64,000 nucleotides of DNA from Thermoanaerobaculia bacterium. GTDB lineage: Bacteria > Acidobacteriota > Thermoanaerobaculia > Multivoradales > UBA5704. The DNA lies in contig JBJMHA010000085.1 of the NCBI GenBank assembly GCA_045807625.1, positions 38,831 to 102,830 on the forward strand. The letters run 5' to 3'. The position numbers were made by a program, and so were the translations under genes. Of this stretch, positions 3,783 to 59,998 are shown piece after piece. The notes under the pieces are model-generated. The model was not told the origin of the DNA, did no database searches, and saw only the letters and a program-made list of their open reading frames with translations. Within the stretch, counting starts at the first letter, position 1, and each line of letters begins with the position of its first letter.

Positions 3783-4155
3783 CCCTGATCTGGATGGGCG
3801 GTGGGCCCGCCCTTCCAGGCCGATTTGACAGCTTCGCCACGGGCCTCTAGCATAGGGGCCCCGCGGGGGGAGAGGTCTGCCCTGTGGGGCCGCCGCCACG
3901 AGGTGGCCGGTCCCAGGAATCGGCCCCGAGTGCTCTCCTGAGGTTCCGCCAGTATATAATGCCGGCATAGATGCCGACGCGTGTATAACCAGCGGTGTTC
4001 ACCCCGGCCGGCGGAGCTTCCATGGCCGCCATCCAGAGTGAGGACGCGAGACGATGGGAGCGGCGCCTGGGGCTGATGCCCCGAGAGGGCTCACCGGTCG
4101 GGTCTTTCATACACGCCGAGGTACGGCCAGGGATGACCCGGAGAGGACGCGGATT

Positions 4156-6400: not shown

Positions 6401-6415
6401 GGCTCACCCGCCCGC

Positions 6416-6985
6416 ATGCGCCTCATCCTCGGGTTGGGCAACCCGGGCGAGCCCTACCGCGACACCCGCCACAACGTGGGCTTCCGGGTCGTCGAGGAGC
6501 TCGCCCGGCGCTGGCAGGTCCCCGTCGATCGACTGGAGTGCAACTCCCTCGCGGGTCAGAAGGCAGGGTCCGAGGGGGAGGACGTTCTCCTGGTCAAGCC
6601 GCAGACCTACATGAATCGCAGCGGCTACGCGGCGCGCTGCCTCGCCGAGCGCCACACCCTGGATCCCGGAGCGGTGTTGGTGGTCTACGACGAGGTCAAC
6701 CTGCCGCTGGGGAAGCTCCGCGTCCGCCGGGCGGGGAGCCCCGCCGGCCACCGGGGCCTCGAATCGATCATCGAGAGCCTTCGCACCGCGGAGGTCCCCC
6801 GCCTGCGCCTGGGGGTGGCTCCGGAGGCAGGGGTGAGGTACGAGGATCTGGTCGACTTCGTCCTCGCCCCCTTCGCGCCCGAGGAGCTGGAGGCCGTCGA
6901 GGAGATGATCCGCCGCGCCGCCGACGCCTGCGAGGTGTGGGTGCGGGAGGGGGTGGAGGCGGCGATGCGGGGATTCAACGGGTAG
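6416..6985 (+). CDS. pth: Peptidyl-tRNA hydrolase
   Basis: MRLILGLGNPGEPYRDTRHNVGFRVVEELARRW...QTYMNRSGYAARCLAERHTLDPGAVLVVYDEVNLPLGKLRVRRAGSPAGHRGLESII matches Pth signature regions. Confidence 0.9.
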   Translation: MRLILGLGNPGEPYRDTRHNVGFRVVEELARRWQVPVDRLECNSLAGQKAGSEGEDVLLVKPQTYMNRSGYAARCLAERHTLDPGAVLVVYDEVNLPLGKLRVRRAGSPAGHRGLESIIESLRTAEVPRLRLGVAPEAGVRYEDLVDFVLAPFAPEELEAVEEMIRRAADACEVWVREGVEAAMRGFNG

Positions 6986-9690: not shown

Positions 9691-10137
9691 GTGAGAGTCA
9701 TTCTGCTCAGCGATCAGCGCCACCTCGGCCGCCGTGGCGAGGTGGTGGACGTCAAGCCGGGCTTCGGCCGCAACTACCTGGTCCCCCAGGGGCTTGCGCT
9801 CGAGGCCACGGACTCCAACATCAAGTACTTCGAGCACCAGCGGGCCAAGATCGACGCCCGGCACGGCAAGGAGCGCGAGGCCGCCCAGGAGATCGCCAAC
9901 CGGATGGCCAACGTCCGGGTGGAGATCCCCAAGCGGGTCGGCGAGACCGACACCCTCTACGGCTCGGTCACCGCGGGCGATGTCGCCGAGGCCCTGGAGA
10001 AGAAGGGCTTCACCATCGACCGCCGGCGCCTGGACCTCGAAGGGGGCATCAAGACCCTCGGCGATCATCCGGTGCGCATCGAGCTCCATCCCGAGGTGGT
10101 CGCCGAGGTGACCGTCTCGGTGGTGCGGGAAGAGTAG
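9691..10137 (+). CDS. rplI: 50S ribosomal protein L9
   Basis: MRVILLSDQRHLGRRGEVVDVKPGFGRNYLVPQGLALEATDSNIKYFEHQRAKIDAR... (GTG start) canonical L9. Confidence 0.95.
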   Translation: MRVILLSDQRHLGRRGEVVDVKPGFGRNYLVPQGLALEATDSNIKYFEHQRAKIDARHGKEREAAQEIANRMANVRVEIPKRVGETDTLYGSVTAGDVAEALEKKGFTIDRRRLDLEGGIKTLGDHPVRIELHPEVVAEVTVSVVREE

Positions 10138-11399: not shown

Positions 11400-11598
11400 G
11401 GCCCCTCTCCCAACCCCTCCCACCCACCCTCACTGGGAGAGGGAAAGCGGGAAGGGTTTTTCTGATCCGACCGATCGGACGGATCCGACGGATCGGTCGG
11501 ATCTAATTGGCCGGTAAGGGATTTTTGTTTTTCTCCCTCTTCTCCCGGTGTGGGAGGGCGGGAGGGGACGGGAGAAGAGGGCCGGGGTGATGAGGGCT
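11400..11598. repeat. Mosaic of intergenic palindromic elements: CCTCTCCC/GGGAGAGG hairpin, GATC-rich palindrome (GATCCGACCGATCGGACGGATCCGACGGATCGGTCGGATC, ~11462-11510), and CCCTCTTCTCCCGG...CGGGAGAAGAGGG hairpin
   Basis: Direct reading; ~11462-11596 recurs reverse-complemented at ~44995-45140; GATC palindrome also at 50150-50200; hairpin family also at 28699-28825. Lies between convergent methyltransferase and PBP genes. Confidence 0.6.
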
Positions 11599-16378: not shown

Positions 16379-16599
16379 CGGAGTGTTCCTCCTGCCAGAG
16401 AGTTGCGGTGGAATGACCTTTTCAGGGCCCTCAGAGGCTCGCGGCGCGCCCGAGAGGCGCTTCGCCGATCCCCGGCCCCTTTCAAGAGATCGCAACTCGC
16501 GGGAAAAAGACGACAGGAGGAAGCTCCCGGCCGGAAAGACCGCGAGCTCATCGGCTCGCAGCCGGGCGGCGGCATCTCAAAGGCGCGAAGAAATGTCCG

Positions 16600-16925
16600 G
16601 CCTACCGTGCCGCCGCCGAGAAGCTCCGGGCGGGGATCCGCGACGTGGTCTTCCCCCGAGGGGGACGCCGAAAGGCTCTTGGCGAGGGGCACCCGAGCGG
16701 GAGAGACTCTCATGCCGCAAGCGGCACCCGAGAGAGGTGAAAATTCCGTAGGGGCGGCCCTATGTGGCCGCCCTGGGAGGGGGGCCTGCTCCGGCCCTGC
16801 GACCCCACCCACCCAGGGCGGCCACATAGGGCCGCCCCTACATGACCTTCCCTATTTTCAGAACAGAGCGGAGAATAGGTGCCTATTGAGGATTGGCCAC
16901 GTAGATTAGGATGGCACCTGTTCGG
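16600..16925. repeat. Degenerate duplicate of the RAYT 3' end and its downstream region (left direct repeat), interrupted by a REPIN
   Basis: 16600-16712 matches 19384-19447 plus 19638-19680 (gagaagctccgggcNgggatccgcgacgtggtcttcccccg...gccgaaaggctcttggcgaggggcacccgagcggNagag); 16866-16925 matches 19681-19737 (agcggagaataggtgcctattgaggattggcNacgtagattaggatggcacctgttc). About 190 bp present at the right copy are missing here. Confidence 0.55.
16748..16852. repeat. REPIN (perfect inverted pair of GTAGGGGCGGCCCTATGTGGCCGCCCTG REP units around a 45-nt spacer)
   Basis: gtaggggcggccctatgtggccgccctg...cagggcggccacatagggccgcccctac read directly; inserted within the left direct repeat. Confidence 0.75.
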
Positions 16926-18561: not shown

Positions 18562-19482
18562 ATGAGCCGACGACTCCGCTTCATCCCCGAAGGAGGAGCC
18601 CTGGTGGAGGTGACCTGCCGGTCGCTCCACAGCCGTCTCCTGTTCCGTCCCAGTCCCGTGCTGAACCAGATCATCATCGGGACTCTCGCCCGGGCCAAGC
18701 AGCGCCACCAGGTCCGGGTCTGTTTCTTCGTCGGCGTCTCCAATCATATGCATCTCTTGCTATGGGTTGAGGACGCCCAAGTGCTATCCAAGTTTATGGG
18801 CTACTTCCTATCGAAGCTGGCGCGGGAGGTCGGGCGCCTGACCGGCTGGAAGGAGAAGATCTTCGGCCGGCGCTACCAGGCCATCGTGGTCAGCCCCGAG
18901 GAGGCCGCCCAGGTCGAGCGACTCCGCTACGGGCTCGCGCACGGCGCGAAAGAGGACCTTGTGGACCGGCCCCGGGATTGGCCCGGAGTCCACGCCGTGC
19001 GGGCGTTGCTCGAAGGCGAGGTCCTGGAAGGGCTCTGGTTCGACCGCACCCAGGAGTACCTGGCGCGCCGCCGTGGCGAGAAGTTTGACCGCCTTCAGTA
19101 CGCGACGCGGGAGGTGCTGGAGCTCGATCCGCTGCCCTGCTGGGAGCACCTGACGGCAGAGCAGAGGCGCGTCCGGATCGCGGCCCTGGTGGAGGACATC
19201 GAGTCCGAGGTCGCCGTCCGGAGGAAGAAGACGGGCGCCAAGCCTCTGGGTGTGGCGGCCGTCCTGGCCAAGAATCCGCTCCAGCGACCGAAGAAGACCA
19301 AAAAGTCGCCCGCGCCGGCTTTCCATGCGGCGAGCAGGGCCGTGCGCCGCGGGCTCTGGGACGCCTACTCCCTGTTCGTCGCGGCCTACCGTACCGCGGC
19401 TGAGAAGCTCCGGGCCGGGATCCGCGACGTGGTCTTCCCCCGGGGGAGCTTCCCGCCACCGTTGCCGTTCGTGGGTGGATAG
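18562..19482 (+). CDS. REP-associated tyrosine transposase (RAYT; IS200/IS605-like Y1 HuH transposase family)
   Basis: 306 aa; HuH motif in VSNHMHLLLWVED, downstream catalytic-Tyr region GRRYQAIVV; window contains multiple GTAG-headed REP/REPIN palindromes, the known substrates of RAYTs. Confidence 0.7.
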   Translation: MSRRLRFIPEGGALVEVTCRSLHSRLLFRPSPVLNQIIIGTLARAKQRHQVRVCFFVGVSNHMHLLLWVEDAQVLSKFMGYFLSKLAREVGRLTGWKEKIFGRRYQAIVVSPEEAAQVERLRYGLAHGAKEDLVDRPRDWPGVHAVRALLEGEVLEGLWFDRTQEYLARRRGEKFDRLQYATREVLELDPLPCWEHLTAEQRRVRIAALVEDIESEVAVRRKKTGAKPLGVAAVLAKNPLQRPKKTKKSPAPAFHAASRAVRRGLWDAYSLFVAAYRTAAEKLRAGIRDVVFPRGSFPPPLPFVGG

Positions 19483-19637
19483 GCCGGCGCAGCAGTGTTC
19501 TTGACCTGATGGAAACTGACCACGGCGCTCCGGGAGGAGTGGACAGCGGAGGTGTGTCCAGGTGAACTGTTCGGGCGAGGATACCGGAAGCGGATGTCGG
19601 CAATCTCGGTCGAATTTGGGGTAGGGAGATACCCGGA

Positions 19638-19737
19638 GGACGCCGAAAGGCTCTTGGCGAGGGGCACCCGAGCGGAAGAGAGCGGAGAATAGGTGCCTAT
19701 TGAGGATTGGCTACGTAGATTAGGATGGCACCTGTTC
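19638..19737. repeat. Right direct repeat (intact copy of the sequence duplicated at 16669-16925)
   Basis: gccgaaaggctcttggcgaggggcacccgagcggaagagagcggagaataggtgcctattgaggattggctacgtagattaggatggcacctgttc; the upstream part of the repeat (19384-19447) lies inside the RAYT 3' coding end. Confidence 0.55.
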
Positions 19738-19850
19738 CCCCCTGGATCTGTAGAGGCTCGCCTCGCGGATTTGGCGGCTCGCCTCGCGGGGCGAGCCGCG
19801 CACGCCGCGGGCGGGAACAAAGCGGCCCCCCTCCCGGTTACAATCTCTCT

Positions 19851-21851
19851 ATGGCAGGCTTCCAGCTCGTATCCAAGTTCACCCCCCAGGGGGACCAGCC
19901 CGAGGCGATCCGCCAGCTCACGGAGGGGCTGGAGCGGGGGGACAAGGAGCAGGTGCTGCTCGGAGTCACCGGCTCCGGCAAGACCTTCACCATCGCCAAG
20001 GTCATCGAGAAGGTCAACCGGCCGACGCTCGTCCTCTCCCACAACAAGACCCTCGCCGCGCAGCTCTTCCAGGAGTTCCGCAGCTTCTTCCCCCACAACT
20101 CGGTCGAGTATTTCGTCTCCTACTACGACTACTACCAGCCGGAGGCCTACGTCCCAGCCACCGACACCTACATCGAGAAAGAGACCAGCATCAACGAGGA
20201 GATCGACCGCCTCCGCCTGCGCGCCACCAAATCCCTGTTCGAGCGGCGGGACGTGATTATCGTGGCTTCCGTCTCCTGCATTTATGGTCTGGGCTCCCCC
20301 GAGGCCTTCTTCGGCATGCTCCAGTTCTTCAGCCAAGGGGACACCGAGGGGATGGACGCCGCGCTCAAGCGGCTGGTCACCATGCAGTACGAGCGCACCC
20401 AGCTCGACCTCTACCACGGCAGCTTCCGGGTGCGCGGCGACGTGCTGGAGATCCTCCCGTCCTACGAGGAGGTCGGCATCCGGGTCGAATATTTCGGCGA
20501 CGAGGTCGAGCGCATCACCCGCTTCGACGTGCTGCGGGGGGAGACCCTCCAGCAGATCGACCGCATCGCGGTCTATCCCAAGACCCACTACGTCACTCCC
20601 AAGTCGCGGCTGGAGCGGGCCGTCGAGACCATCGCCGAGGAGCTGAAGGAGCGGCTCGACGTGCTGGAGGCCGAGGGCAAGCTCCTCGAGCGCCAGCGCC
20701 TGGAGCAGCGCACCCGCTTCGACCTCGAGATGCTCAAGGAGATCGGCTATTGCCACGGCATCGAGAACTACTCGCGCCACCTCTCCGGCCGCGCCCCGGG
20801 CGAGCCGCCGCCGACCCTCTTCGACTACTTCCCCGACGACTTCCTCCTGGTGGTCGACGAGAGCCATCAGTCCCTGCCGCAGGTGCGCGGCATGTACGCC
20901 GGCGACCGCTCGCGCAAGCAGACGCTGGTCGACTTCGGCTTCCGCCTCCCCTCGGCGCTCGACAACCGGCCGCTCACCTGGGACGAGTTCGACGCCCGCA
21001 TGGGGCAGCGGATCTACGTCTCGGCCACGCCGGCCCCGATGGAGCTGGAGCGCACGGGGGGCGTGATCGTCGAGCAGCTCATCCGTCCCACCGGCCTGCT
21101 CGATCCGGTGATCGACATCCGTCCGGCCCAGGGGCAGGTGGACGACCTCGTGGGCGAGGTCCGCAAGGTGGTGGCCAACAAGGAGCGGGTGCTGGTGACC
21201 ACGCTGACCAAGCGGATGGCCGAGGAGCTCACCCAGTACCTCAACGAGCTGGGGGTCCGCGTCCGCTACATGCACAGCGACATCGAGACCCTGGAGCGGG
21301 TGGAGATCGTGACCGGCCTGCGCCGCGGCGACTTCGACGTCCTGGTGGGGATCAACCTGCTGCGCGAGGGGCTCGACCTGCCGGAGGTCTCGCTGGTGGC
21401 CATCCTCGACGCGGACAAGGAGGGGTTCCTGCGCAGCGAGACCTCGCTGATCCAGACCTCCGGCCGGGCCGCCCGCAACGTCAACGGCCGGGTGATCTAC
21501 TACGCCGACCACATGACCGACTCGATGCAGAGGGCGATCGGCGAGACCGAGCGCCGCCGCGTCAAGCAGGGGGAGTACAACCAGGAGCACGGGATCGAGC
21601 CGGCGACCATCCTGAAGGACATCCACAACCCGCTGGTCCAGATGATGAACCTCGACCTCTACGCCGCGGGCGGCCCGCCGCGCCTGCGCGCCGGGGCCGA
21701 TGGCGACGGCTCGGAGCTGCCGATCGCCGAGCGCATCTCCCGTCTGGAGAAGGAGATGCGCGCCGCCGCCAAGCGCCTGGAGTTCGAGGAGGCCGCGGCG
21801 ATGCGCGACCAGATCCGGGAGCTGCGGGAGCTCCAGATCTACGCCGGATAA
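19851..21851 (+). CDS. uvrB: Excinuclease ABC subunit B
   Basis: [49 protein letters not shown]... full-length UvrB with helicase motifs and C-terminal UvrC-interaction helix; GGTTACAAT -10-like element ends 6 nt before the ATG. Confidence 0.95.
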
Positions 21852-21894
21852 CTGCGCCCGACAACCGCCAGCCGATCCGGAGCGTCCGTCTCCG

Positions 21895-22132
21895 GGGGGA
21901 GCTTTGCGTCTTTTGGGGAGCCCCGCGTCCCATCGGGGGGAAGTCTTCCCCTTTTTTGGGGAGCCTTCCCCTTTTTAGGAGGAGCCCTCCCCTCTTTTGG
22001 GGAGCCTTCCCCTTTTTTGGGGGACCGTTCCCCACTTTTGGGGAACCCTCCCCCTTTTTTGGGGAGGCCTCCCCTTTTTGGGGGAATCATTCCCCAATTT
22101 TGGGGAGCCTTCCCCTTTTTGGGGAGACCCCT
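21895..22132. repeat. Tandem array of ~10 degenerate 20-21-bp units, each a mini-hairpin plus T-run (consensus TTCCCCTTTTTTGGGGAGCC)
   Basis: cttttggggagcc ttcccctttttaggaggagccc tcccctcttttggggagcc ttccccttttttgggggaccg ttccccacttttggggaaccc tcccccttttttggggaggcc tcccctttttgggggaatca ttccccaattttggggagcc ttcccctttttggggagaccc; contiguous, no spacers. Immediately downstream of uvrB. Confidence 0.8.
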
Positions 22133-22180
22133 CGTCCAAAATGGGCGGCGATTGCCCCGTGAGAATCCGTGGCCCGTCGA

Positions 22181-23533
22181 TTACGAGGTGCCGTTCCCGG
22201 CTTCGAACGGGAGCCCGGGATCTCCCTCGGCGCGCCGGAGATAGGCGGCGACCTTCGCCACGAGCTCCGCGCCGGCTCTTTCGGCATCCACGGCCTGCCG
22301 GAAGAAGGTGAGGGCGGCCAGGGCCTCCCGGTGGATGTGCCGCGAGGCGAAGATCGGCACCATCTCGGCGGCCAGCCGCTTCAGATCCTCCGTCCGGCCC
22401 TGCTCGGCGTAGAGCAGCGCGAGCTCCAGCGAGACCAGGGCCGTATCGTACGGGATTCCCTCCGCGATGAAGCCGTCCCGGGCGGCCAGGAAAAGAGATT
22501 CGGCCTGCCGAAGGTGTCCTAACCCGAGCGAGATTTGCCCCTTCAGCCACTTCCTGCGGTTTTGAATCCAGGCTTCGTTGAAGCTTCTGTAGAGTGAGCG
22601 AGCTTCTTGGTAGACTTTCTGAGCTTCCAGAAACCGACCTGCGCTGGCTGTGTAGGCCGCGAGGTTGTGACGCGCACAGAGGAGAAGGCGGGGTTCTCTC
22701 TCTGGATCGACCAACTTGATTGCCCTTTGTAGGGCTGGAATAGCATCAAGAGCTTTGCCCATCTGGTTGAAGACAATCGATAGACCAACAAGAGACCGGC
22801 CCGCTCTGTGTCGCTCTCCAAGGCTGGTGAAAAGTTCCACTGCCCGCCGAAGGAGACGAAGCGCCTCTTCAAAGCGGCGCTGATCTCGGCGTAGTGAAGC
22901 CTTCAAGTCCAAGAGTATGGCTCTCTCCAGACCATCCCGCGTCCCTTTCTTCAGTTGCTGGTAGGCCTGTCCAAAGGCTTCTTCCGCCCCCTGGAAGTCG
23001 AACCGGAGCCGGCAGGCGTTGCCGACGAAGGCCCAGGCCCGCGCCCGGAGGTCCGCGATCCGCTCGGCACCATAGCGTCCGCGGTCGAGATGATCGGAGA
23101 GCCGGAGCGCCAGCAGGCCCAGACGCTCGCCGAAGGCGGGATCCTGAACGCTGGCTTCGAGGCTCCGCTCCACCAGCAGCTCGAAGACGCCCCAGGTCTG
23201 GAAACGGGGTGAATCGCGGAGAAGAAGGTCGCGGATCTCGGCGGGCTGCTCGAAGAGCTCGACGAAAAGCCCCGGCGCGTCGTCCCGCTCCCTTTCGAGG
23301 ACGGCCTCCCACTCGGAGAGCGCGCGCCGGCTCTCCGCCAGGCCCGCCTCGTAACTCCCGGCCCTGGGGTTTCCGATCGCGTCCCGCGGGTGGAGGGGAA
23401 GGGGGCGGGGGAGATAGTGGAGCTTTGATCGGCAGTAGCCGCACCAGGCAAGGTGCCGCAGGAGCGACCGGTGCCCTTCGTCGAGCGACAGCACGAGCTC
23501 CTCCAAGACATCGTCATTCGGGTGGATCTTCAC
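22181..23533 (-). CDS. Zinc-binding (HxxxCxxC, ZAS-like) TPR-repeat regulatory protein, anti-sigma-factor-like
   Basis: Start assigned to GTG 23533 (VKIHPNDDVLEELVLSLDEGHRSLLRHLAWCGYCRSKL: H-x3-C-x2-C motif); remainder is TPR-like helical repeats. Upstream part of ORF 22181..23788 looks non-coding. Confidence 0.6.
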   Translation of the reverse strand: MKIHPNDDVLEELVLSLDEGHRSLLRHLAWCGYCRSKLHYLPRPLPLHPRDAIGNPRAGSYEAGLAESRRALSEWEAVLERERDDAPGLFVELFEQPAEIRDLLLRDSPRFQTWGVFELLVERSLEASVQDPAFGERLGLLALRLSDHLDRGRYGAERIADLRARAWAFVGNACRLRFDFQGAEEAFGQAYQQLKKGTRDGLERAILLDLKASLRRDQRRFEEALRLLRRAVELFTSLGERHRAGRSLVGLSIVFNQMGKALDAIPALQRAIKLVDPEREPRLLLCARHNLAAYTASAGRFLEAQKVYQEARSLYRSFNEAWIQNRRKWLKGQISLGLGHLRQAESLFLAARDGFIAEGIPYDTALVSLELALLYAEQGRTEDLKRLAAEMVPIFASRHIHREALAALTFFRQAVDAERAGAELVAKVAAYLRRAEGDPGLPFEAGNGTS

Positions 23534-23759
23534 GCTCCTCCTCCTTCTGCCACCTCCGGCAGCTCTCGATGATGGTCCGTAGCAGCCACCCTTCCGGGTC
23601 CTCGTGCCGCAGCCGCCGCTTGGCGAGAAGCGTGCGGCAGGCGTCGTCGACGATCTCCCGGGCCCGGGGCTCCGGCACGCGATAGGCGTTGAGCACCGCC
23701 GGCAGCACCGGAGAGAGCCGTTCGAGGATCTCGACGCACGAGTCGGCCGGTCGCTCCAT
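23514..23759 (-). CDS. Small protein resembling sigma-70 region 2 of ECF sigma factors only (possible truncated sigma factor)
   Basis: 82 aa from internal ATG 23759: MERPADSCVEILERLSPVLPAVLNAYRVPEPRAREIVDDACRTLLAKRRLRHEDPEGWLLRTIIESCRRWQKEEERE; pattern resembles ECF region 2.1-2.2 (DxxQETFL...W..LY.IARN); overlaps downstream ZAS gene by ~20 nt. Weak. Confidence 0.4.
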   Translation of the reverse strand: MERPADSCVEILERLSPVLPAVLNAYRVPEPRAREIVDDACRTLLAKRRLRHEDPEGWLLRTIIESCRRWQKEEEREDPPE

Positions 23760-23821
23760 GGCGCGAAAGGGTAGCACCTCTCCACCATATCTGTTGCCGC
23801 AAAGCCGCAATTCGTGACAAG

Positions 23822-23868
23822 GAGAAAGAAGAAAAACGCCGGTTCCTGGAAACCGGGGACCGGCGTCT
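23822..23868 (-). terminator. Rho-independent terminator (minus strand)
   Basis: Minus-strand hairpin ACGCCGGT-ccccggtttccagga-ACCGGCGT followed by TTTTTCTTCTTTCTCC; located just after the 3' end (23885) of the small secreted-protein gene. Confidence 0.5.
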
Positions 23869-23884
23869 TCTGGATCGGCTACTG

Positions 23885-24139
23885 CTAGCCGTTGGGGTCT
23901 ATTTCGACTCCCCCATCGGTCGTGGGGAGCGGGGTGAGGAGGTTGGGGCGGGTGCCATTGGGGTCCATCGAGCTCCCCTCCTTGACCCGACTGGGGACAT
24001 ACGCGAGGACCCACTGCCAGAGCCCATCGAGAAAGCCCGCCGGGGCGGAACGGACGGCGAGTGGCCGGGCATGGACCGCGCCAGCCGCCAGGACGAGCAG
24101 GACCAGGGCGAGCACAAAGGAACGGATCGTTCGCTGCAT
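23885..24139 (-). CDS. Small secreted protein (84 aa), unknown function
   Basis: ATG 24139 preceded by GGAGAGGAGAGG RBS; MQRTIRSFVLALVLLVLAAGAVHA signal peptide; ends ...LTPLPTTDGGVEIDPNG. Confidence 0.5.
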   Translation of the reverse strand: MQRTIRSFVLALVLLVLAAGAVHARPLAVRSAPAGFLDGLWQWVLAYVPSRVKEGSSMDPNGTRPNLLTPLPTTDGGVEIDPNG

Positions 24140-24265
24140 CAGACCTCTCCTCTCCAGGGGGCCGCGCGCCCGGCCCCCATGGCCGGACGGGACCGCCCCA
24201 GGAGAAGAGTGGCACCTTTTCCGCGGAGAGAGGCCTGGGTGTACGATCGGCCCGGAGGAACGATC

Positions 24266-24670
24266 ATGGGCACCCAGCGCCGTTTTCCGGACGATATCGT
24301 TGCCGCGATCCGGGACGGGAAGATCCTCGGCATCCGGGCCGGAGCTCAGCCGCACCGCTTCATCGGGATCTGGGCCGTGGTGGTGGAGGGCCGGGTCTTC
24401 GTGCGCTCGTGGAGCCTCAAGCCGCGGAGCTGGTATCGCACGTTCCTCGTAGAGCCGCATGGGGCGATCCAGGCCGCCGGGCGCGAGATCCCCGTCCGCG
24501 CCGTCCACACCAGGAGCGAACGCCTGAAGGCCGCCGTCGACCAGGCCTATCTGGAGAAGTACAAGACCCCGGGATCGATCAAGTACGCCCGGGATCTCGG
24601 CGCCGAGCCGTCCCGAAATACGACTACAGAGCTCGTGCCGGAACAGGCGCCAACTCCTACTCAGAGCTGA
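24266..24670 (+). CDS. DUF2255-like small protein
   Basis: MGTQRRFPDDIVAAIRDGKILGIRAGAQPHRFIGIWAVVVEGRVFVRSWSLKPRSWYRTF matches the conserved pattern of DUF2255 family proteins. Confidence 0.55.
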   Translation: MGTQRRFPDDIVAAIRDGKILGIRAGAQPHRFIGIWAVVVEGRVFVRSWSLKPRSWYRTFLVEPHGAIQAAGREIPVRAVHTRSERLKAAVDQAYLEKYKTPGSIKYARDLGAEPSRNTTTELVPEQAPTPTQS

Positions 24671-24706
24671 CACCTGCCGGCGCCGGTGTTGATGCAGGGC
24701 CAGGCT

Positions 24707-25447
24707 TTAATCATCATCGCCCTCTCCGACGATCAACGTGTAGTTGACCCCCGTTTCCGATTGATCAGGATTGATCATGCGGAAGCTGAGGGTGTGCTCG
24801 CCGGGCTTCAGCGGTTTGAGGAGCAGGAAGTACCCGTCCGCCACCGCGGGGGAGCGATTCCCCGCGGCCACCCCGAGATCGGTGAGAAAGGACGGATTGG
24901 GAACCCGCAGGGTGAAGCCCCCAGGCTGGCTCTGGGCGCGGAAGGCGAAGAGGTCCTCCACGGGTGCTCCGTCTAGAGTGGCCTGCAAAGAGATGGCGGG
25001 CGCCACGGGGACGTCATTGTTGACGTCACACCGAACCTTCCCTACGCTGGTCGCGATTTGAAGGCAGGGATCGCCCGCCGCCGGGAAGTCGGGCGAGAAG
25101 CTCACGAACACTCCTCCCAGGGACAGGAAGATCGCCTTGCCGGCAGGCACCACGCACGTCCGGTCGGCAACGCCCTCGAAGGTGCTCGCCAGAAACCACA
25201 CCTTCCCTGCCTGGTTCCTGCCACAGAACCTTCCATCGGGGTCGAACGCCGGATTGGTCGCGATCGGCTCCGCGACCAGCCAGTTGGTCCATTCGCCGGC
25301 CAGCTCATTGTATGACTTGCCGAAGAGCTCCTGGCCGGGCTGAACGACCCTGAGCTTGTTCGTGTTTTCGTCGGCGGACGCCACCGCCGCCATCAGAAGT
25401 CCCATCACCACGACTGTGCTTTGCCAAAGTTTCCTGTTCAGTTTCAT
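24707..25447 (-). CDS. Secreted protein of unknown function
   Basis: ATG 25447 with AAGGAGA RBS (spacing 6); signal peptide MKLNRKLWQSTVVVMGLLMAAVASA; 246 aa, beta-rich, no recognisable domain. Confidence 0.6.
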   Translation of the reverse strand: MKLNRKLWQSTVVVMGLLMAAVASADENTNKLRVVQPGQELFGKSYNELAGEWTNWLVAEPIATNPAFDPDGRFCGRNQAGKVWFLASTFEGVADRTCVVPAGKAIFLSLGGVFVSFSPDFPAAGDPCLQIATSVGKVRCDVNNDVPVAPAISLQATLDGAPVEDLFAFRAQSQPGGFTLRVPNPSFLTDLGVAAGNRSPAVADGYFLLLKPLKPGEHTLSFRMINPDQSETGVNYTLIVGEGDDD

Positions 25448-25564
25448 GGCCATTCTCCTTATGAGCTCAAGAGGGATGCGCCGGTCCGTGTCATGGACGT
25501 CCGGCAGGGGATCGGGGGTGCACAATTGCTGATTCATTTTCGTTTCCTTTCCTTCAAGTCCGGT

Positions 25565-28210
25565 TTACGAGGCGGACAGGGAAGCCACCACCTGCTCCAG
25601 AAGCGCGATCAGAGTCGTGACGTCCGCACCGTCCGCCTGGGCCTTGCGCAGCGAGGAGGTGGCCTGTTGCAGGAAGGCGATCGCCGCCTGGGTATTGCCG
25701 TTTCGGATCTTCTCCAGCGCCCCGTTGCTGCCGTTGGGGTTTCCGAACAGGGCCTTGCGGGCCTTCTCCAGATCCTTGAGGACCTTCGGGTCCGTCGTGC
25801 CCGCGATGGCGCTGTCGAGCAGGCCGACGATCTCCTGGACCGCCTGCTGGGGAGTGACCACGCGGACGGTCGTGGATTGAGCTCCCACGCCGCCGTCGTC
25901 ATCCACCACCGAAAGCACGACCGGGAACGTGCCCGCCTGGGTGTACCGGTGCCGTTGCGACACGGCGCCGGTGCCGTCGCCGAAGGCCTCGTCGAAGGCC
26001 GTGAAGGCGGTCTGGGGCTCGACCGAGCCGTCGCCCCAGGCGAGCGTGGCGGTCTGATGATCAAGCCGTCCCGGATCGCTGAAGCTCGCGCTGGTGGTCA
26101 CCGGCACGTTGGTGAGCACGAAGGGCACCTCGACGTTCACCTGCCGCCCCGCGCTGTCGGCGACGCGGAACTGCGTGAGCTGGGGCGCCACGTTGCGGAC
26201 GTGGATTTTGGCGAACGCCTGACCCACGGGGCCCCCGGAAGGATGTTGCGCCTGCACCGGAACCGTGACGTCCGACGGACCGTCGAAGGCGGCGGCGTTG
26301 AAGGTGACGGAAGATCCCGTGGTCTCGTAGCTGCCGTTGAGGTCGAGGTCCCACGCGAGAGTGAACGGCGTGGCGTAGTACCGGTCGCAATCATCCAGGA
26401 AGTCGACCGCGTCCAATTCCTGATCGATGTCGTCCGTGCCGCCGTCGTTCAGAACGAATTTCAGGTCGGGGTCCTGGCGCGTGATCCCATCGCCGGCGAG
26501 GGTCCGCGCCTCGTCGATGGTGCCCTGCTCGTGATCGATGGCGAAGATGGAGCAGCCGGCCGGCGCGAACCACCTCCACGACCGGGCCTTGTCGGCGCGG
26601 GTGACGAGGAACGGAGGGTTGGAGAACACGATCCGGGGCTCCAGGGCGAAGAAGTTGTCGAAGTTGTCGAGATCGAAATCGGCAAAGTCGACGACCGTGT
26701 CGAACGAATGGAAGTCGGTCTCGTCGTAGAGCTGGATCCACGCCTTGGTGATCGGGGGCGCGGCGGTTCCGCTGAGGCTCACGCTGCCTCCCTCGTCGAC
26801 CTCATAGGGACCATTCACCACCGCGGTCGGCAGCAGCGTCGGGCTGCCTTCGCGCGCCATGTCCTGATGCCGCCACTCGCCGGCCTTGACGGTCTCGTCG
26901 GGCCCGTCGTTGTCATGCTCGGTGGCGTAGAAAATCAGCTCGCCGCTCGGGGTGACGTGGAAGCCGGTCGCCGCCGCGAGGTTGGCCAGCCGGGTTCCGC
27001 CGTTGCTCGGGAAGGGGGAGATCCGCTTCCCGTGGACGATCACCGTAAAGTGGACCTCCTCGCCGGGAGCGCAGTCCGGCGTGTCGCACTCCACGCGATA
27101 GAGATCGATGCGGTCGTGATCGCCGAAAATCGGATTGCCGCGGGCGCCGGCCATGTACAGGTCGCCGTTGATGCTGCCTTCCCGCAGGAATTGGAAGGTT
27201 TGATGGGAGTCCTCGACTTCCGGCACCTTGGTGCGCGCCACGAATTCCCATTGGAGATCGGGGCTCGCCAGGTCTCCGCTCGTGGAGCGGTAGAAGAAGA
27301 TGGGGTCTTCGTCCTCGAAACCGCCCTTGACCGCCAACAGGTAGCGCCCTCCGGGCAACGGCGTGACGCCGACCCCGTCGGCGGCCTGCAGGGGCTTTCT
27401 CGCGGGATCGCCCTCCGGCCCGTCGAACGGCGCGAGTTGGCTCTTGAACACCGGAGCCTCCGGATCGCTGGCGTCGAAGAACAGCACCACCGCGGGGTGA
27501 GGCGCCACGTCGTAGTTGGGGTCGGGAATCGGCGGCAGCGGGAATTGCGGGGTCGAATTCGGATTGGGAATGGTCGGCCGCTTCGGGGTATCGGCCCCCA
27601 CGGCCAGCATGTGGCCGACGAGCTGCATGCCGCCCGGATGCCCGTAGACGCGCTGCACGGGCCCGGGGCCTTCGCCGTCGCGGAAGACAAGGCCCGGACG
27701 CTTGGCCGGGTCCGGATCGCCGGGATCACCGCCCACGACCGTGAAGAAGATCGTGGCGACGTCCTCCGCGGGCGGCGCGGTGGCGTCGACGTGAACGCCC
27801 TTGCGCAGGCGGTTGCTCCGCAGGCGCTCGCGGTTCTTGTCGCGGGAGCCCATGCGGAAAACGATCAGGTTTCCGTCGCGTTTCTCGTGCGGGGAATCAT
27901 CGCACACGAGCTCGTCGGGCAGGATCGGGATGTCCGGCGTGTTGCCGCTGCGGGTGACCAGAAAGAAGGGCGTGCCGTCCGCCCCATCCACGCGGGTGAT
28001 CGCCTGATAGTGCCTGCACATGCTCGGGTTCGGCGTGGTGCTGATGTGGAATCCGAGCGGGTCCGCGCGCTCGGTCAGCGCCTGGAACTGCTCGATCACG
28101 TTGGGTACGAAGCGCATGCCGTCGGCCCGGTCGCTCTGCTGAGCGCCGGCGGGCGGCGGAGCCAGCAGCGACGCGAGCGCCGCGGCTTTCAGGAACGTCT
28201 GTATTCTCAT
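25565..28210 (-). CDS. Large secreted protein with PKD domain and conserved C-terminal helical domain
   Basis: 881 aa; signal peptide MRIQTFLKAAALASLLAPPPAGAQQ; PKD-type segment (TATLAWGDGSVEPQTAFT...HRYTQAGTFPVVLSVVDDDGGVG); C-terminal ~85 aa (AVQEIVGLLDSAIAGTTDPKVLKDLEKARKALFGN...AIAFLQQATSSLRKAQADGADVTTLIALLEQVV) similar to C-terminus of lipoprotein 14702..16378. Confidence 0.8.
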   Translation of the reverse strand: MRIQTFLKAAALASLLAPPPAGAQQSDRADGMRFVPNVIEQFQALTERADPLGFHISTTPNPSMCRHYQAITRVDGADGTPFFLVTRSGNTPDIPILPDELVCDDSPHEKRDGNLIVFRMGSRDKNRERLRSNRLRKGVHVDATAPPAEDVATIFFTVVGGDPGDPDPAKRPGLVFRDGEGPGPVQRVYGHPGGMQLVGHMLAVGADTPKRPTIPNPNSTPQFPLPPIPDPNYDVAPHPAVVLFFDASDPEAPVFKSQLAPFDGPEGDPARKPLQAADGVGVTPLPGGRYLLAVKGGFEDEDPIFFYRSTSGDLASPDLQWEFVARTKVPEVEDSHQTFQFLREGSINGDLYMAGARGNPIFGDHDRIDLYRVECDTPDCAPGEEVHFTVIVHGKRISPFPSNGGTRLANLAAATGFHVTPSGELIFYATEHDNDGPDETVKAGEWRHQDMAREGSPTLLPTAVVNGPYEVDEGGSVSLSGTAAPPITKAWIQLYDETDFHSFDTVVDFADFDLDNFDNFFALEPRIVFSNPPFLVTRADKARSWRWFAPAGCSIFAIDHEQGTIDEARTLAGDGITRQDPDLKFVLNDGGTDDIDQELDAVDFLDDCDRYYATPFTLAWDLDLNGSYETTGSSVTFNAAAFDGPSDVTVPVQAQHPSGGPVGQAFAKIHVRNVAPQLTQFRVADSAGRQVNVEVPFVLTNVPVTTSASFSDPGRLDHQTATLAWGDGSVEPQTAFTAFDEAFGDGTGAVSQRHRYTQAGTFPVVLSVVDDDGGVGAQSTTVRVVTPQQAVQEIVGLLDSAIAGTTDPKVLKDLEKARKALFGNPNGSNGALEKIRNGNTQAAIAFLQQATSSLRKAQADGADVTTLIALLEQVVASLSAS

Positions 28211-28366
28211 GATCCATCTCCTGTGTCGAAAGGTTTGCGCGAAGCGTGCGCACAGGAGAAATCGGAATGAGTGGAGAAAAGACGACAGCGAAGGATGCCC
28301 AGGAAGCGAAGAGCCGGCCGGATGGGCCCGGCCGGCTCCTCTCCTACGGAGGCTCAGCGCCGTCAG

Positions 28367-28510
28367 TTACTGCGGGCAGGACACGACGACGGAAAAGATG
28401 GTGGTGATGGTATCGGTGAAAATACCGCCGCCGACGCCGGCGAGCTTGTCGTGGTCGAGCTGGCGGAGCGTCTCGCGGGACAACTGAAGCGGCTGGAGCT
28501 TCCTTTTCAT
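28367..28510 (-). CDS. Small ORF (47 aa) with double-glycine-type leader-peptide-like N-terminus
   Basis: ATG 28510 preceded by GGAAGGAGAG RBS (~7 nt); MKRKLQPLQLSRETLRQLDHDKLAGVGGG|IFTDTITTIFSVVVSCPQ: charged leader ending in GG followed by hydrophobic Thr/Ser-rich core with one Cys. Confidence 0.45.
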   Translation of the reverse strand: MKRKLQPLQLSRETLRQLDHDKLAGVGGGIFTDTITTIFSVVVSCPQ

Positions 28511-28787
28511 GGGTTTCTCTCCTTCCAAGAGCTTGGGTTTATCGATCTTTGATGCTCGTCTGTGCCGTGCCAGTAGGGGGTGGCGACGACACCCGGATGC
28601 TCTGGAGATCGGAATTCGTGGGGAAAAGACGACAGGGGTCTTCAATCTGCCTGGATTTGGCGTTCTCGGCAGGTTGGCCCTCATTTGATCCCCACTGGGC
28701 CCGGCCCTCTTCTCCCGGCCTCCCCTCCGGCCTGACGGGAGAAGAGGGAGAAGTTAGCTCAGCTTGTCAAAAGCCCCCTCTCTCCCG

Positions 28788-31309
<2,522 letters not shown>

Positions 31310-31313
<4 letters not shown>

Positions 31314-31885
31314 TGGAGGAGCCCCGGGCGCAGGGCGTGGCGAAGGTAGATCCGTGCCTTGTCCCAATGCCGCTGCACCGTGCGCTCGCTGGACCCCCGG
31401 AGGCTGGCGATCTCGGCGAAGGTGAAGCCGCAGAAGAACTTGAGCTCGACGACTTGCGCGATTTCGGGCTCCACGGCGGCGAGCTCGTCGAGAGCCTGGC
31501 TGAGCCGCTCCATCTCCTCGGCCTCGTCCGAAGGGGTTGCGTCGCCCAGATCCTTGCCGTCGAGAGAGGTCATCGCGAAATCGCCGCCGCGCTTCTGAGC
31601 CTGCCGGCGGCGCAGGCCGTCGACGATCAAGCCGCGCATGACCCGGGCCGCATACCCGAGGAACCGGGCGCGGTCGGGGAAAGCCAGGTCCTCGCGGCGG
31701 GCCAGATCGAGATAAGCCTCATGAAGCAGGCTGGTCGCGCCGAGCGAAGCGCCCGGACCCGACCGCGCGAGCTCGCGGCGGGCGAGCCCGCGGAGCTCCC
31801 GGTAGAACGCCGAGAAAAGTGCTTCGGAGCCTTGGCCGTCGCCGCGATTGGTGGGGGGGATCGGAATTGAGAAGGAGCGTTCCAT
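31310..31885 (-). CDS. ECF-type RNA polymerase sigma factor (kinase-associated subfamily, TIGR02999-like)
   Basis: 191 aa from ATG 31885: ...LFSAFYRELRGLARRELAR...LLHEAYLDLARR... region 2 and ...AQVVELKFFCGFTFAEIASLRGSSERTVQRHWDKARIYLRHAL region 4 HTH; immediately upstream of the STK. Confidence 0.8.
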
Positions 31886-32035
31886 GGGTCGCCTCGCTGT
31901 CCCTACGGAAGCGTGCCGAGGCCGCGAAGCTTGCGGTCTCGCACTGTCGAGGAGGGAACGCTCGGGAGGGGGATTTCCCCTCACACTGGGAGGGACCGCC
32001 ATGGGCCATGCCGCGGATGGGGAACGCGCGGTGTG

Positions 32036-32272
32036 ATGTATGATAGAGCCATGCAACTCGCTACCGGTATCGTTGTGAAGGGAAAAGTCGTCGTGGAGGG
32101 AGAACCCCTGCCCGAGGGCACCGTGGTCACCATTCTTGCCCGTGAAGCGGACGAGACCTTCGAAGTGCCGCCGGAGCTCGAGGCCGAGCTTTCGGCGTCC
32201 ATTGCTGAAGCCGACCGTGGCGAGACCATCGCCGCAGACGAGCTGATCGATCGCCTGCGGCGGATCGCTTGA
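32036..32272 (+). CDS. Putative type II antitoxin (addiction-module component, TIGR02574-like C-terminus)
   Basis: MYDRAMQLATGIVVKGKVVVEGEPLPEGTVVTILAREADETFEVPPELEAELSASIAEADRGETIAADELIDRLRRIA; C-terminal acidic EIE..AE...GE.I.A.E...RL pattern of that family; stop overlaps TTG start of a ParE-like remnant. Confidence 0.55.
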   Translation: MYDRAMQLATGIVVKGKVVVEGEPLPEGTVVTILAREADETFEVPPELEAELSASIAEADRGETIAADELIDRLRRIA

Positions 32273-32403
32273 GCAAAGGTCTAGAGGTCGAGGTCACACC
32301 GCGAGCCGCGGCGCAGATCGAGCGGGCCGCGGCATGGTGGGCTGAGAACCGGCGCAGCGAACATGCTGTAGACTCTGGCAGGCTTGTTCATCTAGCGTTG
32401 TAG
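32269..32403 (+). pseudogene. Truncated ParE/RelE-family toxin gene (N-terminal ~35 codons retained)
   Basis: TTG-start ORF LSKGLEVEVTPRAAAQIERAAAWWAENRRSEHA... matches ParE N-terminus pattern (V.WTP.A..D...I..YIA..NP.AA) then diverges into low-GC sequence and stops at 32401-32403; start overlaps antitoxin stop (TTGA). Confidence 0.45.
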
Positions 32404-32544
32404 ACTGGAGAGAGGCTAGAGTAGTGGCACCAAATCCCCCTGAAGAAATGCTCTAGTCCCTTGCAGGCTATAATATGTTTGATCATGATAAGCCAAGCTC
32501 CGATGTCGCTAAGCCGGGACATTGCTGATCGAGATCGGTGAGCG

Positions 32545-35500
32545 ATGCTGGGGCTTACGGCAGCACATCGGGGTTATGAATATCAGGATCTTCTCGTCGC
32601 TTGCCGCCTTGTCGACGTACTTTTAGGCACCCTCGTCCAGGTCCATGTAGATGAGAAGTTGATTCCTGGTGACCGCTTTGACGATCTTACAACCGTAGAT
32701 ATCAGTGGTCACCGTGAGCGGATTCAATTCAAACACACAGATAACGACGACAAACCTCTAACACTCGCGACGTTTACGAGCGACGATAGAGGTCTTCGGC
32801 TTGATCGCCTCATCGCCGCGATACTCACCGACCGTTTAGGCCCAGGAAGTCATTCTAAGCATCATAGCTTTCGCGTGATTCTTCGGGATAAGCCGCCCTT
32901 AGATCCGCGCCTCACGGCCGTCCTAGCTCCCACCGCAGTTGATCCAGGGCCATTCATACCGGCCATGCCGACAATACGACTGGCCTTTGATGCTGAGGCC
33001 TTGTGGAAACACGTCGAGCAAAAGTCCAACATAGATTCACCCCCTGGTGAGGGTTATTTCGGATTCCTTTCTAATGAAGAGATGCCTATGTTGCGAGCTG
33101 ACCTCGAATGGGCGTGCCAGCACCTCATAATCGAGGTAGCGGCTCCAGCAGCAAGTGGAGACCTGACAACCCCTGAGATAGCCGAACGCCTGCTCCTAAT
33201 GCGAGTCCGTACCGACGTTGGCGCGGAGGCATACCCTAATGTGAACCGCTCTGCGATTGATGTCGCTGCGGCGATGATTGGAGCTGCCCGCGCAGCCCGT
33301 CAGAGGCGACTTATTATTTCCTCTGACGAGTTACTTCGCTGGGCGCAGTTGCGCCACGATTTCGGGGCCGTCTCACGCGCTCATCCGGTTGATCGTAGCG
33401 TCGAGGTTTTAAGAACAATAACAGTCCGAAAGCTTGCAGAGTCTACGGCTGAGCTAGCAAATATCGGAGGGCGACTTCTTGTGGTCGGTCCGCCTGGTCA
33501 AGGTAAGTCGTGGGTTTGTCAGCAACTTCTAGACGAGCTGTCATCCCGCGGATGGCTTACTTCGGAGCACTACTGCTATTTGGGCGATGCCGATGGTGAG
33601 CGATTGGCGCGAGTTCTCGCAGAAACAGTCTTTGGAAGTCTCCTCGGTCGGCTCGCTGATGCCGATCCCAGGTTAGTCGTCGACCATCGGCCACGTTTCG
33701 CAGCTGACGAGGAGGCGCTCATCGGTTGTCTCACTCGGTCCCTCCAATATGATCCGCAACGCCCAGTGGCACTTCTAGTGGACGGAATCGATCACATAAC
33801 TCGAATTCGTTCTAGAGGTGGCAACTTTGATCCTTCCTTGAACCTTGCTGAGGCACTTAGCGCCCTGGCGTTGCCGAAGGGTAGCGTGCTAATCGTCTTG
33901 AGTCAACCTGGGGTACATCTAAAGCCCCTCGAAGAGGCGGGAGCTACAACACTTACCATCCCCGGGTTAGACGAGATTGAGATTCGTTCGCTCGCTGCAC
34001 GTCTCCGTGTCGTGCCTCCGATAGGCATGGCCTCTTACAATGGCGACAGACCATTGCTCGAGACTGACGAAGCTGTATCTGAGTTTCTTTCGGCGCTAGC
34101 AGATCGATCAGCAGGCAACGCTCTGTATGCCACGTATCTTTGCAGGGAGGCCCTCCGTCAGGACTCCACACCTGCGGACCCGGCTACCATAGTGAGAAGC
34201 TTCCCTCCATTCGATGGAACACTCGAGAGCTACTATCAATACTTGCATTCAACGCTTGGTGCCGAAAGTGGGTGGGTTGCCGATGTCATTGCCTTAATAG
34301 ACTTTGCTGTCAACCGTTCCGAGTTACTTGAGATCAGGCCAGATGCATCGCATCATATCGACAAGGCTCTCGAAGTTCTTGCTCCAGTTCTCGTAGAGCG
34401 AGCTGCTCAAGGCGGCGTTCGTATATACCATGAATCCTTTGCTAGATTCCTGCGTCGCCCATTTCAGAACGATCCTATCGCGCTCGGTGCTCTCCTCAAT
34501 CTGATCGCTGCTTGGTTGGAGAGAAAAGGCTTCTTCTCAGACCCTCGAGCTTTCAGCTCTCTCCTTCCGACTCTTACCGAAGCTGGTCGCGATGCTGAAG
34601 TGGTCACTCTCATAGAGCGAGGCTTCGTGGTTCGTGCAGTAGCCGCCGGTTTCTCGGCATCTTCTATTAACAACAACCTCGCAACTGCAATTGGATCCGC
34701 AGCGCGGATCAAGAATTGGCCGGCTGTTGCCCGTTATGTAGAGCTGTCGCGAGCTGCGGATGCTTATCAGGACGAACGCTTTGATTCCAGTTTAGTGCAA
34801 TTCGCCGATATACCGATGGCGTTACTCGGACCAGGAGTTGTTTCGGATCGCTTACTGCATAACGATCGGCTTGTAATGCCCGCGAGGTCTGGGCTTCAGA
34901 TGTGTGCCGCTGTCGACGAACTCGGTGCGGTTGCACCTTGGAGTCAGTACATGAGAGGGTATCTGCGCGAAGCTAAAGCTGACAATACCTCTTATGGTGC
35001 AGAATCCGACCGCAAAGTGGCTCTGGCATGGTTGCGCGGTCGGCTTCGCCTCTCAGTGTTGTTGGAGAGCTCAGAACATCAAGCTAATCTTGGGAGCCAC
35101 GATGATGATAACGATGGCGAGCCGAATGACAGAGAATGGAACCCGGCTAGCCCGCTGGATTGGAACCGTTTAGTGCATTGGGTGAATAGGCGAAGGCTTC
35201 CTGCATTCGATGTGGTCAAGGCTATCTACGATACCTATGGCCTGCCGAGCGTGATTAAGTTTATTCGAATGCTTGATCGTCCGGGAGATATGTATTTGGC
35301 GCTCGCTGAGTTAACCATGGTTAATGGAGCTGTTGATAGCACTATCAATGCGCGACAGTGGGCAATCAATGCCGCATCTTGCGGAGTGGTGCCAGGTTCA
35401 GCGTATCGGATGCTGGCGCTTGGAGTAGATCTATCAAATCTTGCAATCTTATCTGTTAGTGATGCCCGTGATCGCTTGCTATCTCTGACGCAGGATCTCC

Positions 35501-38976: not shown

Positions 38977-39055
38977 AGTTTTTCAAACGCCCTCCAGTCC
39001 AGCGGAGGTGCAGTCAAAAGGTGCCAGGCAACTTCCCAGACGGTAAGATCCCCCC

Positions 39056-58776: not shown

Positions 58777-58804
58777 GTAGGGGCGGCCCTATGTGGCCGC
58801 CCTG
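58777..58804. repeat. Single REP unit (GTAGGGGCGGCCCTATGTGGCCGCCCTG)
   Basis: Direct reading, 5 nt after the LysM gene stop; between convergent genes. Confidence 0.6.
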
Positions 58805-59950: not shown

Positions 59951-59998
59951 GGGAATCCCTCCCGGGGAAATTCAGGAAAGCTGGTCAGGGACCACAGA

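Follow-up and report, generated by a model that had tools for sequence, protein, structure and literature searches.

A tandem array of small hairpin units at the convergent junction of uvrB and a TPR operon in Thermoanaerobaculia

The uvrB/TPR junction and its array

The window, by which we mean the whole 64-kb stretch of DNA analysed here, carries the excinuclease gene uvrB in convergent orientation with a three-gene operon that ends in the gene for a TPR protein (Table 1). The 329-bp gap between them is filled by an array of short hairpin-forming repeats, which starts 45 nt beyond the uvrB stop codon and leaves ∼40 nt before the stop codon of the TPR gene. The likely start of uvrB is M43 of the longest open reading frame (19725-21851), and the closest homologues of its product, 86-97% identical, are named UvrB and belong to uncultured Thermoanaerobaculia (Acidobacteriota); exact-protein look-ups with the window's UvrB, for which two start codons were tried, and with the TPR protein returned no record. 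The TPR operon has a conserved gene order, running from a small protein with a signal-peptide-like N-terminus through a protein of ∼80 residues to the TPR protein. The last of these has an N-terminal HxxxCxxC motif, like that of anti-sigma zinc fingers, and is 82% identical to its orthologue at the related locus L084, the alignment with which set its start. No Pfam domain was found in either of the two smaller proteins; the ∼80-residue protein is 93-95% identical where the adjoining TPR protein is only 68-83% identical.

Table 1. Features at the uvrB/TPR junction, in window coordinates
Feature	Position	Strand	Remarks
uvrB, excinuclease ABC subunit B	19851..21851	+	NCBIfam NF003673, 1057 bits, match from residue 46; TAA stop 21849-21851
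First hairpin past the uvrB stop	21877..21895	+	CCGGAG-CGTCCGT-CTCCGG; no T-run; 21872-21900 folds at -13 kcal/mol
Two degenerate 5′ edge units	21896..21936	+	GGGGAGCTTTGCGTCTTTT and GGGGAGCCCCGCGTCCCATC; ancestral '..CGTC' arm kept; resemble units of L002 and L134
Nine well-formed 20-21-bp units	21937..22121	+	GGGGA(A/G) / 3-4-nt loop / (T)TCCCC / T5-6; found by Tandem Repeats Finder, repeat search and terminator-like scan
3′ edge unit, ancestral type	22122..22141	+	GGGAGACCCCTCGTCC; AAAA next
Flank hairpin	22143..22158	-	GGGCGGCGATTGCCCC; kept in F1 loci (flank aligns in window, L001, L002 and L134); minus strand continues AUUUUGG
TPR protein, 450 aa	22181..23533	-	Pfam TPR_12 and TPR_MalT; convergent with uvrB; last gene of operon
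∼80-aa protein	23544..23777	-	tblastn; 93-95% conserved across loci with different array types
Small protein, signal-peptide-like N-terminus	23882..24139	-	first gene of TPR operon; tblastn, 70% identity to L084 85-aa protein

Read directly, the array consists of 12 in-register units of 20-21 bp (21896-22141), nine of them well formed and three degenerate ones at the edges. An earlier note, made from the letters of this DNA, had counted ten units at 21895-22132, which is essentially right, and its description of contiguous, spacer-free units of a mini hairpin plus T-run on the uvrB strand is borne out by the direct reading and by the scans. Tandem Repeats Finder places the array at 21945-22126 with a period of 21, 8.9 copies, 77% matches and a score of 209, and reports a second, double period of 41; a repeat search finds 10 overlapping 90-nt copies from 21896 onward, in register, with a start-to-start step that is always 20 or 21. 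A unit measures ∼20.5 bp and comprises a G/C stem of 5-6 bp, a loop of 3-4 nt and a run of T5-6. Searches for such motifs gave 5-8 matches against 0.03-0.6 in shuffled sequences, with every match inside the array: TCCCCTTTTTGGGGA, with up to two mismatches allowed, matches six times (0.10 expected), and GGGGN6CCCCNTTTT five times (0.03 expected), and neither occurs elsewhere in the 64 kb. The array is not a CRISPR, its units being contiguous and free of spacers with only 3-4 nt varying between the arms, nor is it a coding repeat, because the alternation of 20- and 21-bp units keeps no reading frame. We regard it with high confidence as a genuine, non-coding and locus-specific hairpin minisatellite at the uvrB/TPR junction; it is unusual, yet it is no new kind of system.

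A scan for terminator-like sites between 21000 and 23000 returned 14 sites against 1.5 expected, of which 13 lie on the plus strand within the array, where they collapse to seven distinct hairpins, and none lies on the minus strand within the array. Seven to nine units thus score as a stem plus T-run, on the uvrB strand only; a U-tract follows directly 3′ of the stem at seven distinct sites in the uvrB sense, and in two further units the stem is bordered by ACTTTT or AATTTT, with A or C rather than T beside it. Sites of this kind are rare elsewhere in the window, and the array holds 6 of its 26 runs of five or more T and 3 of its 7 runs of six or more. Single well-formed units, with stems of 5-6 bp, fold at -6.5 to -9.0 kcal/mol (mostly -8 to -9), at the weak end of the terminator range, and the 5′ edge units fold weakly, at -2 to -3 kcal/mol. 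An alternative register of the plus-strand RNA, TCCCC-U6-GGGGA, has equal or greater stability (-9 to -11.5 kcal/mol). The intergenic region as a whole folds better than shuffled sequences on both strands, with z about -4. The hairpin in the array's right flank is a weak candidate terminator of the TPR operon, the minus strand of the surrounding region (22130-22165) folding weakly at -7.8 kcal/mol. A sigma-70 promoter scan found no promoter-like site, and Rfam searches of 21500-22600 at permissive thresholds gave chance-level matches only, the best of 13-24 bits being far below threshold. All five convergent junctions in the window contain a strong GC hairpin element, which is a REP, a palindrome of 9-mers (GATCCGACG and the like) or the uvrB array.

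Arrays at the same junction in related genomes

The junction was compared across ∼58 Thermoanaerobaculia uvrB loci, nine of which were retrieved by exact-protein look-up and 51 by scanning genomes for the conserved 3′ end of uvrB, two being duplicates. An array with a period of ∼20 bp lies directly after uvrB in ∼13 of these, and the remaining ∼440 kb of the same loci contain one other such array, at 63.7 kb in the window. A metagenome scan with universal uvrB motifs, used solely as a negative control, showed no array directly after uvrB at any of 80 loci among the matches listed, of which 79 are distant (58-70% identity) and one is an 86% relative. All of the post-uvrB arrays have a period of 18-21 bp and 7-13 units, and most have a double period of 35-42 bp.

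The arrays fall into several sequence types. Those of the window and L001, which we refer to as F1a, are built of GGGGA..TCCCC plus a T-run, and in the ancestral F1 arrays of L002 and L134 GGGGAGACCCCTCGTC-T5 alternates with a core-inverted variant. F1b (L086/L133 and L110) is made of GGCTGGGGGACCCCTCTCCCC, and F2 (L138, L140, L107 and L084) of GAGGTCTG-N3-CAGACCTG-N3, both without T-runs. The F1, F1b and F2 arrays have a period of 20-21 bp and a double period of 41-42. Three unrelated arrays with other sequences and periods of 18-20 bp are present in more distant lineages (L094, L098 and L101).

The window's 3′ edge unit is of the type that builds the L002 and L134 arrays and that also closes the L134 array; the L002 array has GGGGAGACCCCTCGTCC as its last unit, and that of L001 has the degenerate form GGGGACCCCTCGCCCC at its end. 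Across the F1 loci the flanks are conserved and the interiors homogenised, with the window retaining ancestral-type units at both edges. The share of 9-mers in common is 0.34-0.48 for arrays of one sub-type, 0.03-0.18 for arrays of different F1 sub-types and 0.00 for F1 against F2. Together these features mark the concerted evolution of a minisatellite. Turnover in which new unit variants sweep the interior and old variants survive at the edges is well supported by these comparisons, as is the view that the F1a array is the local variant of an array that has held the same junction across a genus-level clade. The minisatellite that was one option of the earlier note is thereby shown, with homologous arrays evolving concertedly at one junction and old unit types at their edges; the repeats are head-to-tail and their copy number varies between lineages.

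A tree of the adjacent TPR protein places the F2 loci as one clade nested among F1 loci, and the uvrB tree places F1b in a sister clade, from which it follows that F1 is the ancestral type and that an unrelated array displaced it on a single occasion. The replacement has the same 21/42-bp period and a similar length, with unrelated sequence. T-runs are limited to one sub-family: tracts of four or more T are present in all four T-run arrays (nine in the window, seven each in L001 and L002, four in L134; 27 in total) on the uvrB sense strand only, with no A-tracts. Compared with dinucleotide shuffles, 11 of the 13 arrays have more stable folds on each strand (z of -3 or below), and the L002 array folds no better than its shuffles. 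At F2 loci the array takes up nearly the whole gap between the two stop codons. Genes have been inserted beside it at two loci: at L084 an 880-aa gene lies between uvrB and the array, which remains at the TPR stop codon, and at L110 a gene lies between the uvrB stop codon and the array flank. The close relatives L139, L003, L085 and L114 have no array, and at the array-less loci L100, L105 and L114 long hairpins or REPINs follow uvrB.

Transcript ends, duplex DNA or neutral repeat

Our tentative preference, which we would place somewhat below even probability, is that the array serves as a transcript-end and insulator element of the junction, taking the form here of a series of weak intrinsic terminators that act on uvrB transcripts. 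Once RNA polymerase has passed the end of uvrB, each unit would fold co-transcriptionally into a hairpin of -8 to -9 kcal/mol followed by U5-6, and could thus act as a weak intrinsic terminator; the G-arm/C-arm hairpin could form before the next unit is transcribed, with the U-run directly after it. Nine such units in series might sum to efficient termination, and the stacked 3′ hairpins might shield the end of the uvrB mRNA. Since every unit is a dyad, hairpins form on the opposite strand as well; they have no U-tracts but could impede polymerases that run on from the TPR operon into antisense uvrB.

The transcript-end role is suggested by the T-tracts on one strand, the hairpins at junctions, the filling of the gap by F2 arrays and folding that is better than that of shuffles. 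Because an F2 array leaves almost no other room between the stop codons, transcripts from either side have to terminate within it or at it. The other convergent junctions of this genome have single strong hairpins (REPs, 9-mer palindromes), probably for the same job. Like known intrinsic terminators, the units have a G/C stem-loop followed by T5-6 on the sense strand just past a gene, with several in series; the stems here are only 5-6 bp, however, and homologous arrays in relatives have no U-tract. Tandem terminators such as rrnB T1-T2 consist of two or three distinct elements, whereas the array repeats a single 20-bp unit nine to twelve times without a break. The window unit is a better canonical terminator than the ancestral GGGGAGACCCCTCGTC-T5 because its stem abuts the T-run, and since the F1b and F2 arrays have no T-runs, canonical termination cannot be the conserved property. 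A 'terminator multimer', one of three options among which the earlier note did not choose, is plausible for the variant in the window and does not hold for the arrays as a group. The hairpins with 5-bp stems are each marginal, which counts against the terminator reading, as do the A or C beside the stem in two units, the stability of the alternative register, the rarity of stem-plus-T-run sites elsewhere and the L002 array's failure to fold better than its shuffles, and a role as RNA hairpins does not predict the ∼21-bp period (two helical turns) and similar length that unrelated arrays share. If the transcript-end reading is true, the array is a natural transcription stop made by the roughly tenfold amplification of one minimal terminator hairpin, in a phylum whose gene ends otherwise rely on hairpins without U-tracts, and would be a test object both for the summing of weak terminators and for how transcription ends in Acidobacteriota.

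The array can also be described as direct repeats of a dyad with an A/T centre, TCCCC-T5-6-GGGGA, recurring every 20-21 bp. The iterons at the lambda origin, which bind the O protein and adjoin an AT-rich region, share with it a 16-19-bp dyad, C-rich and G-rich arms, an A/T-tract centre and direct repetition at ∼20-24 bp. A scan of viral contigs for a two-unit pattern gave eight matches in six groups, four of which have an array of 3-5 units inside a lambda-O-like initiator gene. In the sense direction of O these arrays read TCCCC-A4-6-GGGGA, which is also what the window array reads on its minus strand. Dyad arrays of the CCCC-T4-6-GGGG form were noted within O-like genes at L141 (∼4030-4160), L144 (∼6400-6510), L145 (∼5000-5090) and L147 (∼9770-9850); they have 3-5 dyads, belong to unrelated metagenomic phage groups of 28-61% GC, and are translated as linker repeats of the PxKKG type. 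This suggests that the CCCC-T4-6-GGGG iteron type may be widespread. Viral scans with the F2, ancestral-F1 and second-array motifs gave no informative arrays, the last of these matching isolated palindromes only. The phage arrays have 3-5 units at irregular spacings of 16-26 bp inside an initiator gene, in contrast to 12 regular units that are chromosomal and vertically inherited. Plasmid centromeres and iteron 'inc' arrays, such as R1 parC, pSK41 (4 x 20 bp) and P1 incA, likewise have ∼10 direct repeats with a period of 10-11 or 20-22 bp, to which dimers bind cooperatively on one helix face; here there are no adjacent par or rep genes, and the array is chromosomal, between housekeeping uvrB and the TPR operon. 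A search of the literature on such arrays or on iteron decoys found nothing relevant.

These likenesses bear on several readings in which the array acts as DNA. It may be a protein-binding array of the iteron, centromere or operator type, in which a 16-bp dyad, TCCCC-(A/T)6-GGGGA, recurs every two helical turns so that dimers aligned on one helix face would form a nucleoprotein block, serving as a roadblock, an organiser or a titration site. We consider this rather unlikely, even though several observations speak for it: the periods (20-21 bp in F1, F1b and F2, 18-20 bp in the three unrelated arrays) and the counts of 7-13 units, half-sites that alternate in orientation about every 10.5 bp, the second array of eight 20-bp palindromic units in a divergent promoter gap of the same window, and a unit architecture that is that of the lambda ori iterons (TCCCTC-AAAAC-GAGGGA, a 100% match to phage lambda) and of the 3-5-unit arrays that four unrelated phage groups carry in O-like initiator genes. 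The binding array that had earlier been offered as an option gains some support from the conserved 21-bp period and from the likeness of the units to lambda-type iterons. On the other side, no candidate binder tracks the array type, the 80-aa protein being 93-95% identical between F1 and F2 loci and the identity of the TPR protein not strictly following the type; no O-like gene was detected by tblastn in the window and related loci, where searches with three phage O-like proteins matched only the repeat itself; there is no AT-rich unwinding element, the GC content being 0.58-0.72 across 21.8-22.4 kb; the ancestral F1, F1b and F2 patterns gave no phage arrays; and A-tract phasing, and hence curvature, is confined to the T-run sub-family. 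The iteron resemblance may also be a by-product, because a tandem hairpin plus T-run automatically yields such dyads. The proteins of the operon are rejected as specific binders, since the 80-aa and TPR proteins do not co-vary with the array type and only TPR repeats are recognised in them. That the array instead acts on duplex DNA under a constraint of geometry, as a decoy titrating phage initiators or as a nucleoprotein barrier, with an arms-race turnover that would explain the wholesale change from F1 to F2 in which period and length were kept, strikes us as improbable; on this view some ten dyads would be kept two helical turns apart beside a variable, partly defence-like island, with a window variant that mimics lambda-O iterons. 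Very improbable is the idea of a lambda-O-type piece of origin left by a prophage, or of an iteron decoy kept to titrate initiators, for which the iteron resemblance could be cited together with a position bordering a variable island that has candidate defence genes (PDC-M05A/B in L001; a STAND NTPase and a kinase in the window). Against it, no initiator gene lies around or beside the array, the short flanks leave no space for the remnant of one, the unit count is two to three times that of phage arrays, the locus is vertically inherited across the clade, and there is neither a DNA unwinding element nor a BLAST match of the array to phage and plasmid collections, although a low-complexity filter may contribute to the last.

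The array could, alternatively, be a VNTR with no function, in which slippage during replication or unequal exchange has duplicated a terminator-like hairpin and the repeats turn over as selfish or neutral DNA, with any effect on transcription incidental; we take this to be unlikely, though it deserves serious weight. Mycobacterial MIRU and other VNTR minisatellites are similarly intergenic and head-to-tail, with concerted evolution and lineage-variable copy number; their units of 40-100 bp are much longer, whereas the unit here is itself a hairpin plus T-run, and an unrelated array with the same period has taken over the locus in one sub-clade. Concerted evolution with degenerate edge units, the patchy presence among close relatives and the freedom of the array sequence to change completely all fit a neutral repeat, as does a partner-swap folding comparison of the window and L001 that gave no sign of arm-specific covariation, at low power because the units are too uniform and the segmentation clipped the C-arm. 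It does not sit easily with the concentration of such arrays after uvrB in the Thermoanaerobaculia loci and their absence there from the control loci listed, with copy numbers that stay at 7-13 and show no intermediate low values, or with the replacement of F1 by F2 at the same period and similar length, which looks like constraint. That arrays recur at one junction, vary little in copy number and were replaced like for like speaks for some constraint. REP and BIME clusters of enterobacteria and pseudomonads, to which the stabilising of mRNA 3′ ends and the binding of gyrase or IHF are attributed, share with the array short imperfect palindromes arrayed between convergent genes, where REP clusters typically lie, and a Y1-transposase-like reading frame with a sub-threshold RAYT match is present 2.4 kb upstream. 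A dispersed cluster of this type mobilised by a RAYT transposase is nevertheless scarcely credible: REPs are scattered in hundreds and tied to RAYTs, but this unit is confined to one locus, and the genome's own GTAG-type REPIN, GTAGGGGCGGCCCTATGTGGCCGCCC, is unrelated to units that have no GTAG. The link to RAYT is rejected, the RAYT-like frame being sub-threshold and absent from other array-bearing loci. The earlier note had allowed that the array might turn out to be a ubiquitous REP or an assembly artefact; outside the array the unit occurs nowhere in the 64 kb or in ∼500 kb of related loci, and homologous arrays of similar length recur at the same junction in independent JGI, ENA and NCBI assemblies, some on contigs of 0.27-0.71 Mb. 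Low-complexity sequence collapsed or expanded in assembly is for this reason hardly conceivable as the source of the array, even if the exact copy number in the window may differ from that assembled. That the array gives rise to a structured non-coding RNA, or to an RNA that sequesters proteins through repeated GGA or U-rich motifs as CsrB and RsmZ do, is most improbable; UUUUGGGGAG, which contains GGA, does occur in every unit at regular spacing, but no Rfam family comes near its threshold, no promoter-like site was found, the GGA lies in the stem rather than the loop and the motif is not conserved in F2.

What the transcript-end reading leaves over is that one gene junction has been held in turn by unrelated arrays with a 21-bp period, a similar length and dyad symmetry in common. 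Either a site-specific process makes hairpin minisatellites recur there or the geometry of the DNA is read by something, and the second would point to an undescribed protein-DNA structure. This geometry, conserved across unrelated arrays, is the unexplained part and is worth pursuit.

The variable island and other repeats in the window

On its uvrB side, a variable gene island is bordered by the array. A conserved block of genes (NmrA-DLH-acetyltransferase-deaminase-uvrC) follows uvrB at varying distance and the intervening genes differ, so that uvrB and NmrA are ∼17 kb apart in the window (NmrA at 39056, uvrC at 43201), ∼1.3 kb in L001 and ∼4.6 kb in L140. The hypervariable segment spans 22181-39056 in the window, 8367-9423 in L001, 8288-12663 in L140 and 8023-10885 in L084. 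In the window it contains the TPR operon, a DUF2255 protein, a PKD protein, a Ser/Thr kinase-TPR protein, an ECF sigma factor and a 2143-aa STAND-like NTPase; that of L001 contains the candidate defence pair PDC-M05A/B, with strong PADLOC matches.

A second array, at 63722-63890, has eight units of exactly 20 bp with an AT-rich palindromic core, CAAACAWTGTTT, and is unrelated to the uvrB array. It occupies the gap that separates a methyltransferase gene on the minus strand (62762-63703) from a divergent reading frame that begins at ∼63896 on the plus strand, and from its sequence it looks like an operator- or iteron-type binding array.

The GTAG-type REP/REPIN element is present in seven copies at four sites (2955-3049, 16748-16841, 58780-58802 and 61318-61407), three of which are inverted pairs, and one copy lies in the convergent gap 58772/58808. 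Just upstream of uvrB, direct repeats of ∼340 bp that are 92-97% identical (16598-16923 and 19382-19737) flank an insertion of ∼2.8 kb, which contains the Y1-transposase/RAYT-like reading frame (18562-19482; sub-threshold matches to NF047646 and PF01797). Inverted repeats of the REPIN-like GTAG...CTAC form also occur directly after uvrB at L101 (∼3690-4010), L107 (∼1000-1120) and L110 (∼7060-7190; all in oriented coordinates), and at L101 the arms of the large inverted repeat are themselves tandem arrays of 17-18 bp.

Long hairpins whose arms are tandem 9-mers are present in the window at 11464-11503, 45100-45138, 50149-50189 and 59986-60088, the 9-mers being GATCCGACG and its relatives and CAGAGACAA/GTCCCTGAT. 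At least two of these hairpins are at gene junctions, 11375/11600 and uvrC/45137, and a similar hairpin, (GAAGTCCCT)x4, follows uvrB at L105.
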